This document shows, in pieces, positions 29,120 through 48,914 of a stretch of DNA of 64,000 nucleotides (position 1 is the first letter of the stretch; every line of letters starts with the position of its first letter). The notes under the pieces are model-generated. The model had not been told where the DNA came from. It made no database searches and saw only the letters and a list, made by a program, of their open reading frames with translations. The stretch is from Chiloscyllium plagiosum (taxonomy: Eukaryota). Location: positions 46,014,021-46,078,020 of the forward strand of contig NC_057719.1 of assembly GCF_004010195.1 (NCBI RefSeq). The letters are read 5' to 3'. A program made the translations under genes and the position numbers.

Positions 29120-29449
29120 TGATCAAAAGACTAAATCGATCACATTGACTTACCGCCAAGATCCTCCTCATGAACCAATTATCGGAGATTCCCTTGAGCC
29201 ACCATATAGAAAGCTTGTAATTCCTTTACTGTTTGATCACACAGCATTGCCCTTTGGTGTGAAGGGTACTGCTTGTCACTGGCCACTTGGGTGATTTCTT
29301 TCTTCCTGGTGGTGAAAATTGAATAAAGATTTATACAACTTGTGTCTTTTGCTTTGTCTCACTCTGCACACACACAACATGGGTGCTGCGGAAAAATAAG
29401 CACTACTGCAGTTAGGCAGTAGTATATGAGAAAAAAATGAAAAAAAAAT
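29120..29449 (+). mobile_element. 3' end of an unclassified poly(A)-tailed retroelement ('family A')
   Basis: AATAAA, terminal hairpin actactgc/gcagtagt (29402-29423), A-rich tail; the last ~95 nt align to 46369-46462. 5' boundary uncertain. Confidence 0.65.
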
Positions 29450-29542
29450 CAGGAGTGTCAAAGGTTCTGAAGAAGCAAAAAGTAGGAGTGTTATGAGTTC
29501 TGTTCACTCTGAGAGCTGGCTCTGAGGGAGCTGGATCAGTGT
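29450..29542 (+). mobile_element. Probable fragment of an LTR (portion downstream of the TATA box)
   Basis: caggagtgtca..ggttctg..gagctggct is weakly similar to 47463-47525; family recognition is from memory and unverified. Confidence 0.45.
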
Positions 29543-29685
29543 GGAATGAAGGGCCCAGCCCTTTAAAGAGAAGAGGAGACTGATTTTTGTTGGTGTCTTT
29601 GCATTAAGGAGGAGTTTATTTTGAAGTTCTTTGTTTATTCTTTATTGTTTATTGAGCTTGTAAAAAAAGAAAGCTTGTAGTGCCA

Positions 29686-29960
29686 TCTGTCTACCAGCTT
29701 GTTATCTACCAGACTGCTGTCTGCCAGCTTCCTGTCTACCAGACTGCTGTCTGCCAGCTTCCTGTCTATCATCCTGCTGACTACCAGCTTCCTGTCTACC
29801 ATCCTGCTGACTACCAGCTTCCTGTCTACCAGACTGCTGTCTGCCAGCTTCCTGTCTACCAGTCTGCTGTCTGTCTGCCAGCCTGCTGTTTGCCTGTCTG
29901 TCTGTTGTCTGTCTGCCTTGCTGCCTTTCTCCCTGCTGCCTACCAGCCTGCATACCAGCC
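29686..29960 (+). repeat. 30-bp minisatellite (ccagcttcctgtctaccagactgctgtctg, ~6 units) decaying into (ctgy)n
   Basis: Exact 30-nt periodicity visible at 29694-29875. Confidence 0.9.
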
Positions 29961-37059: not shown

Positions 37060-37430
37060 CAGAGTGGACAGGCCTTCTCCCCTACACAGAACAGATAGAT
37101 TCTCCCCCTTCCAGCCAGTGGGCAGCCTCTCCCAGACAGTGGACTGCCCTTTCCCTCACAGGAATTGAAAATCCTCTCCCATGCACAAAATGGACAGCCC
37201 CCTCCCTCCCAGACAGTGGACAGTCATCTCTCCCATCCCAGGAGGTGGACATCCCCACTGCCCCCCACACATGCAATCGACAGCCCCATCCCCTCCCAAA
37301 CAGTGGACAGTCCCCTCCCTACCAGAGGGGACAGTCCCGATCCCCCCCCTAGATAGTGGACAGTCCTCTCTTCCCCTCCCAGACAGTGGATTCCCTCCGC
37401 TCCCCGAAACAGTGGACAATCCCCTCTCGC
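37060..37430 (+). repeat. Degenerate ~29-32 bp minisatellite (cagtggacagtcccctccctccc-like)
   Basis: gtggac/agtgga core recurs about 11 times, separated by C-rich spacers. Confidence 0.8.
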
Positions 37431-45597: not shown

Positions 45598-46368
45598 ACC
45601 AAAGGACCCTAAAGGAGTTCTTGGGGTAGGGGTGAGGACTGTGCCAGAAACAACACTAGGATCTGCAGTTCCTGTCCCTGAATTAGGGGAAAATTAGGGT
45701 AGGGATCAACATTTTTGAAATTTTCACTTGTCAAAAGATTTAGGAACAGAAGTAGGCCATTCAACTCATTGTGTCAGCTCTGCCATTCACTGGGACCATG
45801 GCTGGTCTGATAATCCTCTGCTCCAGTTTCCAACGATTTCCGATAACTTCTATTCCCTTACTGCTTAAAAACCTGTCTGTCACAGCCTTGACCAAACTTT
45901 ACAACCAGAGCCGCGACTGCCCTCTGCAGTAAAGAATCATTACCCTCTGTGAGAAGAAATTCCTGGTCTCTGTCCTAGCTGGGTGACCCCTTACTCTGGG
46001 ATTATGCCCTCTCATCCTAAACTCTCCCACAAGACCAGACAATGTCTCTGTATCTACCCTGTTGTCACCGCTAAGTATCTTATATGTTTCCATATCGTTG
46101 CCTTTCATTCTTATAAACTGCAATGAGCACAGACCCAACCTACTCAGCCTCTCCATAAAAGACAGTCCCTCCATATCTGGGGTCAGCCTACTCAGTCTTT
46201 GGTGGACTGCCAGTATATCTTTTCTTTAGATAAAGGGCCCAAAACTGTTCACCATTGCAGTGATAGGAACTATAGCCAGGTGGATCTCATTCACTATGAA
46301 ATTCTTGATTGGAGTTTTTAAACATGGGCTAATCAAGGATTCCTGGCTGACAGATATAAACTGGAAGT

Positions 46369-46462
46369 TTCACTGTGTCTCACACCTGCACACACACACC
46401 ATGGATGCTGGGGGGAAAAATAAGCACTACCGCACTTAGTGGTAGTGTGGGGGATAAAAAAA
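46369..46462 (+). mobile_element. 94-bp poly(A)-tailed retro-insert (family A 3' end)
   Basis: Flanked by ATAAACTGGAAGT on both sides; hairpin cactaccgc/gtggtagtg at 46425-46447; homologous to 29352-29449. Confidence 0.8.
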
Positions 46463-46475
46463 ATAAACTGGAAGT

Positions 46476-46967
46476 TAGCCAAATGGTATGGAGGAGCAGA
46501 CTAAGAGCTGGAAGGCAGATAGGCCATCCTCAGCACTGTCACCCTGGGCGGGTACTGGGGCGGGCTGTCCTAGAGGTGGTCGAAAGGTGTGTCAGGATGG
46601 ACCGAGAACTGGAAGAGGCATGGGGTGGACCGAGAGCAGGAAGGTGTGTAGGGGTGGGCTGCCTTAGAGTGGCTGGAAGGTGGGAGGGGTGGCAGGGGCT
46701 TGCTGGGTCCGAAATGTATGCACTTTTTTTTATGTAACAGGATTGTTTCATGTACAAATGTCATTGTTACTGTCTTGTAATGTTTGAAACTGGGATTTGA
46801 GGTCTGTTCTCATTTCCCTGTAAACTGGTTGAACGGTAGGGTTTGGGGCCTGTTTTGCTGCTCCTCTCCCTTGTAAAATTGCTGTTGTATACAGCTGTAA
46901 ATGTTAACTGTTTTTATAAACTGTTTTGAAAATTGTTTTGTAACTGTTTAATAAAATTAAAAAAAAA
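46476..46967 (+). mobile_element. Poly(A)-tailed retro-insert B1 (possible Tx1/L1-clade 3' end)
   Basis: AATAAA at 46950 plus A tail; T-rich 3' UTR; VWRSRLRA...VLEVVERCVRMDREL is reminiscent of Tx1 ORF2 C-termini (tentative). Confidence 0.65.
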
Positions 46968-46980
46968 ATAAACTGGAAGT

Positions 46981-47462
46981 TAGCCCAATTGTATGTAGGG
47001 GCAGACTGAGAGCTGGAAGGTGGGTAGGCCGTCCTGACCACTGTCACCTCGGGCGGGTACCGGGGCGGGCTGTCCTAGAGGTGGTCGAAAGATGTGTCAG
47101 GACGGACTGAGAACTGGAAGGGGCATGGGGTGGACCGAGAGCAGGAAGGTGTGTAGGGGCGGGCTGCCGAGAATGGCTGGAGGGAGGGACGGGGGCTTGC
47201 TGGGTCTGTATTGTATGCACGGTTTTTATGTAACTGGATTGCCTTTTTATGTACAAATGTCATTGTTGCTGTCTTGTAATGTTTGAAACTGGGATTTGAG
47301 GTTTGTCCTCATTTCTCATAAAACTGGTTGAACACCAGGGTTTGGGGCCTGGTTTTGCTGCTCCTCTCCCTTGTAAAATTACTGTCTCTTGTATACAGCT
47401 GTAAATGTTAACTGTTTGTTGTAAACTCTTTTGTAATTGTTTAATAAAATAAAACATAAAAA
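46981..47462 (+). mobile_element. Poly(A)-tailed retro-insert B2 (diverged copy of B1)
   Basis: Colinear with B1 with many substitutions and indels; AATAAA at 47443; followed by the fourth ATAAACTGGAAGT. Confidence 0.65.
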
Positions 47463-47625
47463 ATAAACTGGAAGTAGAGAAGGTCTCCTCTGGTTTAGGA
47501 ACTGACTTTGAGCTGGCTGGTCACAGCCTATGTACAGTGCCCATATAAATAAAGGGACGGGATACCTGTCTGTGTGCAGTTATTTCAACCATATTTTAGA
47601 TCTGGTCTGACTAGTGCCTTGTATA

Positions 47626-47929: not shown

Positions 47930-48914
47930 ATAGTTTTAGCAAGACTTCCTCATTTTTATACTCCACTCCCCTGCCTTCCTTACTTCTTGCTTTACAAGAA
48001 TGCTAACTTTTTTGTAATTTNNNNNNNNNNNNNNNNNNNNNNNNNNNNNNNNNNNNNNNNNNNNNNNNNNNNNNNNNNNNNNNNNNNNNNNNNNNNNNNN
48101 NNNNNNNNNNNNNNNNNNNNNNNNNNNNNNNNNNNNNNNNNNNNNNNNNNNNNNNNNNNNNNNNNNNNNNNNNNNNNNNNNNNNNNNNNNNNNNNNNNNN
48201 NNNNNNNNNNNNNNNNNNNNNNNNNNNNNNNNNNNNNNNNNNNNNNNNNNNNNNNNNNNNNNNNNNNNNNNNNNNNNNNNNNNNNNNNNNNNNNNNNNNN
48301 NNNNNNNNNNNNNNNNNNNNNNNNNNNNNNNNNNNNNNNNNNNNNNNNNNNNNNNNNNNNNNNNNNNNNNNNNNNNNNNNNNNNNNNNNNNNNNNNNNNN
48401 NNNNNNNNNNNNNNNNNNNNNNNNNNNNNNNNNNNNNNNNNNNNNNNNNNNNNNNNNNNNNNNNNNNNNNNNNNNNNNNNNNNNNNNNNNNNNNNNNNNN
48501 NNNNNNNNNNNNNNNNNNNNAGATTTAAACAAAGAAAATTTATGAGCATAGCTAACACTGCAGAACTAGCACCATTTCTTTATTTGGAGAATCAAATAGA
48601 ACACATGTGCACTGTGTGACTGTACAGCATGAGTACAAGAGAAGACCAAGGGTAAACTGATAGCTCTCTTAAGATTGTGAAAGGACTTGGCACAGTAGAC
48701 AGAGACATTTCCATTTGCAGGGATGACCAGAAATAGTGAACATTGAAACAGGATGTTCACTGATAAATTTCTACGTTCATAAATATGGAACTCACCACCA
48801 CATAAAAACATATACCCCTTTAGCCTGCTTCACCATTCAATAAAATCATGGCTGATGTGATTATGGCCTTATTTCAGTTTTGTGCCAATGCTCCATAACC
48901 ATAATCAATAGGAA

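Follow-up and report, generated by a model that had tools for sequence, protein, structure and literature searches.

Tx1-clade LINEs have been described that insert into other mobile elements. Tx1L of Xenopus laevis inserts into the mobile element Tx1D, and two crocodilian Tx1 families, Tx1-8_Crp and Tx1-4_AMi, prefer LTR retrotransposons (Kojima 2015, PMC4494074). The same report describes passengers: SINEU and the LINE Tx1-Mar occupy one target in Mariner-N4_AMi, with tandem insertions, SINEU-1 has no 3′ tail in common with a Tx1 LINE, transcription from the flanking target was proposed, and one SINEU-2B extension resembles the target. SVA and Sadhu are presented there as non-coding, LINE-mobilised retroposons of 0.9-2 kb that are neither SINEs nor deleted LINEs (PMC4494074). 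In Drosophila, R1 forms arrays at its normal site whose units are set apart by a duplication of the target site (TSD), 14 bp long, with microhomology at the 5′ junctions, and its transcripts carry upstream target sequence (insertion site rearrangements); short-scale annealing is described for both R1 and R2 (Stage and Eickbush 2009, PMC2718515). As set out in the text of these two reports, LTR-preferring Tx1 families, passengers on a common target and TSD-separated arrays are already known.

The window analysed here, a stretch of 64,000 nucleotides of Chiloscyllium plagiosum DNA, contains a solo LTR split by three inserts, all on the forward strand (46251-47592). The outer element, a Gypsy-type LTR of the type-1 subfamily, opens with TG at 46256, closes with CA at 47587 and is flanked by the 5-bp target duplication ACCAT (46251-46255 and 47588-47592). 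Its left part (46256-46355) carries ATTGG, a reversed CCAAT, at 46308-46312 and ends at the first T of TATAAA (46355-46360), and its right part (47476-47587) carries AATAAA at 47548-47553; without the inserts, the LTR measures 113 + 112 = 225 nt. The first 48 nt of the right part are 0.76 identical to type-1 and 0.60 identical to type-2 empty LTRs. The 13-mer ATAAACTGGAAGT, the target word, occurs exactly at 46356-46368, overlapping the TATAAA, at 46463-46475, at 46968-46980 and at 47463-47475, where it has its original continuation into the LTR, and there is no further exact copy in the window. Allowing up to two mismatches yields 8 matches against 2.9 expected, so the signal within the window rests on the four exact copies. 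Between these lie insert A (46369-46462, 94 nt), the 5′-truncated 3′ end of a Tx1-clade LINE with a poly(A) tail, and inserts B1 (46476-46967, 492 nt) and B2 (46981-47462, 482 nt), both 5′-truncated copies of a non-coding retroposon B; each of the three ends in an A-rich tail. An earlier sequence-only reading had described the four words with their positions, the three tailed inserts, the ~225-bp TG...CA element, ACCAT, the reversed CCAAT, TATAAA and AATAAA, and all of these are confirmed.

The tail followed by the window's own word variant occurs once in the 3.56-Gb genome, where the window belongs to contig C10, which identifies the 13-mer as target and not as part of the element. Spread of filled LTRs through replication of the LTR element is opposed by the duplication of a different word variant at each locus, with truncation points of its own. 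An assembly artefact would fit the gap, a run of N, that opens at 48021 and lies some 430 nt beyond the solo LTR, but the pattern recurs more than 1,000 times in the genome. We therefore consider it extremely improbable that the word belongs to the elements, that filled LTRs were copied as such or that the array was misassembled.

Genome-wide, A and B are inserted at the TATA word of this Gypsy-type LTR family in the sense orientation of the LTR. Using element sequence only as the query, we read the flanks of 29 other copies of each insert (30 loci of the 40 scored, out of 1,252 candidates for A and 2,543 for B). A adjoined an LTR half in the same orientation at the TATA word in 21/29 copies; for four further copies, in arrays, the array ends were obscured by a gap or by the end of the contig, and another four were off target. 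B was on target at the LTR TATA word in 23/29 copies, three of them judged by eye, and off target in six. After shared or near-identical loci were merged, the on-target counts were 19/27 for A (one shared array, one near-identical pair) and 22/28 for B. The sequence-only reading had predicted that most copies of A and B would be followed by the word in an LTR context, and of the outcomes that it had named as speaking against it, neither random 3′ flanks nor a word belonging to the elements was observed. For A, the 21/29 loci exceed the one flank type in >20% of copies that serves as Kojima's criterion. Insert A matched its 39 other scored copies at 93-97%, B2 its 39 at 88-92%, and the left LTR part, in a search with 921 candidates, 40 scored and 30 loci read, its 39 at 80-88%.

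Counts across the whole genome agree in direction. Seven A followed by ATAAACAGGAG was found 1,284 times, compared with 2 for the reversed control, and the left LTR end followed by the word at least 2,259 times, compared with 1; the word without A at two upstream places was found 921 times, compared with 281 in the control. All 30 of the tail-plus-word loci that were read are situated amid pieces of A, B or the LTR. Empty and filled LTRs, a comparison suggested by the sequence-only reading, both exist: filled copies accounted for 7/30, 10/29 and 9/22 readable LTRs in three samples, the last among 29 internal-region loci, and for 0/13 in a fourth sample of words without upstream A. Loci found via the Gypsy integrase region served as the unselected LTR sample, with L138-L148 used for typing the LTR element. 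The target is the TATA word of this LTR, as had been proposed, but the claim of an identical nick position does not hold to the base: judged by eye, the nick shifts by 2-3 nt inside the TATA box. Another abundant repeat (L314, L329 and similar loci) also carries a perfect target word, and two of its copies were read as empty; this repeat provides a natural control for targeting by the word alone. SINE-like inserts without poly(A) were seen at or beside the TATA word in L025 and L330.

The site might instead be set by its context: a loosely specific endonuclease would be brought to the core promoter of the LTR by tethering or because chromatin is open there, without reading the word. Perfect words outside LTRs were filled in 0/17 cases versus 7/43 inside LTRs, as such a context effect would have it, but the difference is not significant (Fisher p = 0.18). 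Off-target sites, which account for about one fifth of copies (A 4/29, B 6/29), are degenerate A-rich words with only a loose resemblance to the target word, and this too would suit a loosely specific enzyme. Against context stand the internal words that were reused in L224 and L231, where only poly(A) precedes them, and the small array that grew at a non-LTR site in L325. Moreover, because chance words (the 281 of the control) are far rarer than the LTR words, word recognition alone would yield roughly the on-target share observed. Targeting by context is thus an unlikely explanation, and we infer that the endonuclease of A itself reads the word.

Empty copies of the target LTR are about 240 bp long with the TATA word unbroken. 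Elsewhere, the family is joined to protease, reverse transcriptase and integrase sequence, with integrase last (the order being read from L143 and L144 together); the domain matches were RVT_1 at E 2.8e-10, Integrase_H2C2 at E 9.6e-9, rve at E 8e-5 and protease at E 0.016. The label Ty3/Gypsy-type is one that we assign from the TG...CA ends, the 5-bp duplication, the protease-RT-integrase order and, in part, motifs that we take to be Gypsy-like. Two LTR subfamilies diverge behind the word, with identities of 0.77 within type 1, 0.79 within type 2 and 0.66 between them. An initiator-like motif, YYANWYY, is present at +26-33 in 26/32 empty LTRs, with its A at +28-30 from the first T of TATAAA, and in those with the motif no other YYANWYY occurs in the 60 nt behind the TATA. 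Pol II promoters of the TATA-initiator type have this distance between their two elements.

Judged from best-match identity and motifs, family A is a Tx1-clade LINE. In L125, L231, L246 and L247, sequence for Tx1-like ORF1 and ORF2 is attached to its 3′ end, and the L125 copy extends over ~6.7 kb, an unrelated insert included. Over residues 1-1191, all in one frame, ORF2 of L247 has 50.4% identity to that of Xenopus Tx1, in keeping with the Tx1 clade to which the sequence-only reading had pointed. This ORF2 contains the endonuclease motifs LQETH, VYAP, GDFN, RID and DH. The reverse transcriptase matched PF00078 at E 5.5e-23, and in a protein search Tx1-like proteins of turtle, sturgeon and Xenopus came out first (42% and E 5e-117). 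A Pfam scan of three A fragments returned no endonuclease family; ORF1 had no Pfam match, and a CCHC zinc knuckle was read in its L124 copy, and zf-RVT at the C terminus of ORF2 (E 3e-4) lay under its curated cut-off. Copies of A have a poly(A) tail, variable 5′ truncation and a target duplication, and together with the flank counts these features mark A as an additional target-specific Tx1 LINE. Among the 30 A 5′ ends read, seven begin with type-2 LTR-right sequence, the sequence behind the TATA, and most others with part of the 3′ end of A itself, behind which comes a short stretch resembling the LTR. In the 3′ region of A (e.g. window 46422-46448 and L051) there are two hairpins that look perfect; the first immediately precedes the tail, and the second, ~200 nt upstream, is also reused in A's 5′ head.

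Family B is different in kind. Its seven full-length copies measure 1.5-2.0 kb, with a longest ATG frame of 53-123 aa. Blastn of four B copies against three long A copies found no DNA match, in keeping with the earlier assignment of the inserts to two unrelated families; tblastx gave one pair at E 2e-4, and B has no 3′ tail in common with A. In L131 and L132, both of which hold full-length B, Rfam at the gathering score found no match, tRNA, 7SL, 5S and U snRNA included. Classification as SINE1/2/3 or SINEU was rejected, as the head of B matches the LTR and not a small RNA, and its 1.5-2.0 kb compares with less than about 500 bp. Derivation from A as an internally deleted LINE was likewise rejected, given 5′ and 3′ parts without blastn homology to A. 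The earlier claim that at least two elements use one site therefore stands for A and B as such, but B is a non-coding passenger and not an autonomous element.

The 5′ end of B is made of its target. Of 1,277 candidates for B 5′ ends, 40 were scored and 30 read; 25/30 carry a whole head of 50-53 nt directly behind the word (L167 by eye), three start within ~2 nt of the initiator, one crosses from host sequence at the initiator, and one is otherwise shortened. The head is type-1 LTR-right sequence, with 0.70-0.80 identity in 16/17 copies with both ends read, as against 0.77 among type-1 LTRs and 0.56 for shuffled sequence, and it keeps the initiator-like motif at +26-33 in 23/27 cases. In five copies, the head stays type 1 and type-2-like sequence follows, so the head belongs to B. 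The idea that the pre-initiator part of the head always derives from the host failed in 5/17 copies (L211, L214, L216, L218 and L223); this stretch is host-derived in L215, L219 and L226 and resident-derived in L221. Because the head is borne by the element in those five copies, many B template RNAs must have reached the word or beyond, and a start at the LTR's own initiator cannot be their sole origin. LTR-left sequence carried inside arrays (45 nt in L221, 32 nt in L110) likewise points to RNAs reaching the word or beyond. The four B ends at the initiator fit a transcription start there; they are few, were noted post hoc and are in part accounted for by microhomology. A tentative reading, somewhat less likely than not, is that B represents an undescribed, promoter-less type of retroposon, with LTR sequence as its head in place of a small RNA: the Pol II core promoter would be shared out, with CCAAT and TATA supplied by the host LTR and the correctly spaced initiator by B.

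How B moves can be judged from what lies next to it. B might be an internal-deletion derivative of an autonomous LINE partner of its own, in which case two endonucleases would have converged on one site. The lack of a 3′ tail common to A would agree with this, as would the existence of a further LTR-headed family, D, and the greater age of B relative to the youngest A copies: B copies are ~88% identical pairwise, compared with 93-97% for the best A matches. Nevertheless, 0/29 B 3′-end loci ran into reverse transcriptase sequence within 1.5 kb upstream, and 30 B 5′ loci trace back to an LTR head, array units or off-target flank. Furthermore, the machinery at the site takes unrelated poly(A) RNAs, so no tail common to A and B is needed. 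A private LINE partner is hence improbable, and mobilisation of B by A-type proteins is the probable alternative; given this difference in age from the best A matches, B may have been driven by an older family related to A. Word-like sites within B have themselves received later inserts (L159; L058/L125), one of them an A in reverse orientation.

At the 5′ side, the beginning of the resident that lies downstream is often duplicated in a new unit, over 95-430 nt. In L237, ~200 nt of the resident with its private variants precede a long A, and in L238 ~430 nt of the resident do so; ~150 nt are doubled in L231, two short units and the LTR-right start included, and ~95 nt in L226, and in L224 a whole U6-A unit lies on each side of a full-length B. 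Annealing of the cDNA end to matching downstream sequence would explain these long 5′ duplications. A resident was expected behind the long A of L123, but it is absent in L137, where the 3′ end of the element is interrupted. Polar, CRISPR-like growth with the newest unit at one end was ruled out: the first A unit is less diverged than the last in 8/17 arrays and more diverged in 9/17 (Wilcoxon p = 0.75). Among 179 parsed units, 42 are ≤60 nt, with a broad spread and no sharp length peak (the parser misses degenerate words), and origin of these tiny units by cleavage 10-30 nt behind the AATAAA formed by tail and word accordingly found no support.

Within the window, B1 and B2 start with the identical base, and a T lies directly behind each of words 1, 2 and 3. 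Aligned end to end, the two are identical in 435/515 columns; their overall identity of 89.1% compares with 87.7% among 41 other B copies, and at three markers variable within the family (36-62, 250-270 and a 4-nt indel at 398-412) they carry different states. Two separate RNAs are favoured by this near-average identity and by the three markers. Over positions 60-180, B1 and B2 agree at 113/121 sites (93%), more than all 31 comparable copies, and they have two rare bases in common, so that partial templating, partial duplication or conversion may have contributed. A single insert copied at the DNA level, by tandem duplication or unequal crossing-over, would also account for this stretch, the rare bases, the common start and the recurrence of starts in other arrays. 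However, in addition to the marker differences and the ordinary overall identity, units with equal starts have differing 3′ ends and tails, and copying of the resident is confined to the 5′ part of the unit in L237 and L238; we thus hold such an origin of the array, and of B1 and B2 above all, to be quite improbable. Separate insertions being preferred, the start of B1 was likely templated on the first bases of B2, which would account for their common start. The T behind words 1-3 suggests that B2 likely came first, then B1, and A last, an order that agrees with the younger age of A.

The products found at and away from the target indicate which RNAs are used. A U6 snRNA is fused to the A 3′ end at the target word in L224 (283-389 and 2357-2463), and tRNA sequence lies within a unit of the L136 array (2760-2832). 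The L106 insert, 368 nt with 86% identity to one other, source-like locus (L340) on contig C18, ends just behind an AATAAA and has no tail there, and is probably a retrocopy of an mRNA 3′ end at the target; a third family was rejected for it, as it has only two matches, one of them the likely source gene. Given the U6-A chimera, the tRNA and the mRNA end at the target site, any poly(A) RNA is likely accepted by this machinery. A second, off-target product on the forward strand of the window (29208-29679), bounded by a 12-bp duplication (29208-29219 and 29668-29679), contains the 3′ end of an A together with two target words that travelled along, a piece of LTR-right, a 5′ piece of family D and then poly(A), a composition that marks it as a 3′ transduction out of an LTR array. 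Short duplications also occur at off-target sites. The target word lies inside 3/10 off-target copies, in L325 and window 29208-29679, and the source copies of such inserts must therefore have sat in targets. Family D, with 107 candidates for its LTR-right-headed 5′ region (query window 29540-29661; L342-L360), is mostly represented within these arrays by 5′ pieces that are short and end in poly(A), and is perhaps an older relative of A. In L350 and L359, D continues into repeats like those of A's 5′ UTR. Tandem repeats occupy window 29687-29941 (15/30-nt units), starting directly behind the off-target insertion, and 37189-37390 (83-nt units).

Our main reading, to which we assign a probability of about 0.78, is that a Tx1 LINE, A, and its passenger B are aimed at the LTR TATA word, with heads that would let them be transcribed from this target. 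The endonuclease of A would nick the TATA word, and its reverse transcriptase would copy any nearby poly(A) RNA, that of B included; target-primed reverse transcription by a Tx1 LINE in this site-specific manner is the part of which we are most confident. Each insertion duplicates the word and thereby creates new targets, and any copy of it serves as a point of array growth, with no polarity. The new cDNA would anneal to matching sequence just downstream of the nick, and its 5′ end would be joined in this way. In the window, B2 would have entered first, B1, from another B RNA, would have joined on the first bases of B2, and A would have followed. Full-length A and B start with LTR sequence from just behind the word, with the initiator-like motif kept at +28-31; this LTR-derived head would allow a full-length copy to be expressed either by the LTR promoter or through transcripts that enter it from an upstream LTR or array. 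We infer transcription by one of these routes from the heads, and dependence of transcription on the target is slightly favoured.

Genome-wide, one mobile element parasitises the promoter of another, with about one quarter to two fifths of LTRs filled in three samples. If, on the tentative reading, B does supply the initiator of a divided promoter, its targeting, its precise 5′ joining and its transcription would be coupled in a single loop, and LTR promoters in their thousands would have become cassettes that record LINE, snRNA, tRNA and mRNA inserts. The many junctions with 95-430 nt copies of a known template are natural data on the way in which LINEs finish their 5′ junctions. For targeted insertion, interest would attach to a vertebrate endonuclease that prefers a defined ~13 bp and tolerates foreign poly(A) RNAs. 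Furthermore, target-dependent transcription of retroposons, left open in the text of PMC4494074, becomes testable.

Compared with the literature, novelty is lower than the sequence-only reading had proposed, as LTR-preferring Tx1 families are in print (PMC4494074), but a search of titles and abstracts, with most subscription papers and Repbase outside it, found no Tx1 aimed at an LTR TATA box and no LTR-headed passenger. The text of PMC3747384 that bears on the subject added nothing on an LTR-TATA-targeting system. On that footing, the combination of the TATA site with the LTR-headed passenger B is a new form of a known type of aimed insertion. Like A, Tx1-8_Crp and Tx1-4_AMi prefer LTR retrotransposons; the main text gives no position within the LTR element, which the supplementary figures may map (PMC4494074). 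Compared by description only, A is distinguished from these families by its TATA-word site, its sense orientation and its LTR-derived heads, and the head of Tx1-4_AMi is U1-derived, whereas those of A and B derive from the LTR (PMC4494074). Tx1L (UniRef YTX2, P0016), with its ORF2 50.4% identical to that of A over 1,191 aa, also inserts into another mobile element, but its target is a piggyBac-type DNA transposon and that of A an LTR promoter. R1 resembles the A/B arrays in its TSD-separated units, 5′ microhomology and upstream target sequence in transcripts; R1 targets 28S rDNA, with new copies inferred to enter the 5′ TSD (PMC2718515), whereas in A/B arrays internal words are used too, several RNAs are mixed and duplications reach hundreds of nucleotides. 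SVA and Sadhu are, like B, LINE-mobilised and non-coding at 0.9-2 kb, and unlike B they are not described in PMC4494074 as target-specific or headed by a target promoter. SINEU comes closest to B in being non-autonomous, in its target common with a Tx1 LINE, in its tandem insertions and, for SINEU-1, in the missing 3′ tail link; SINEU heads derive from U1/U2 snRNA and most copies are <500 bp, whereas B measures 1.5-2.0 kb and its head is the post-TATA sequence of the target LTR.
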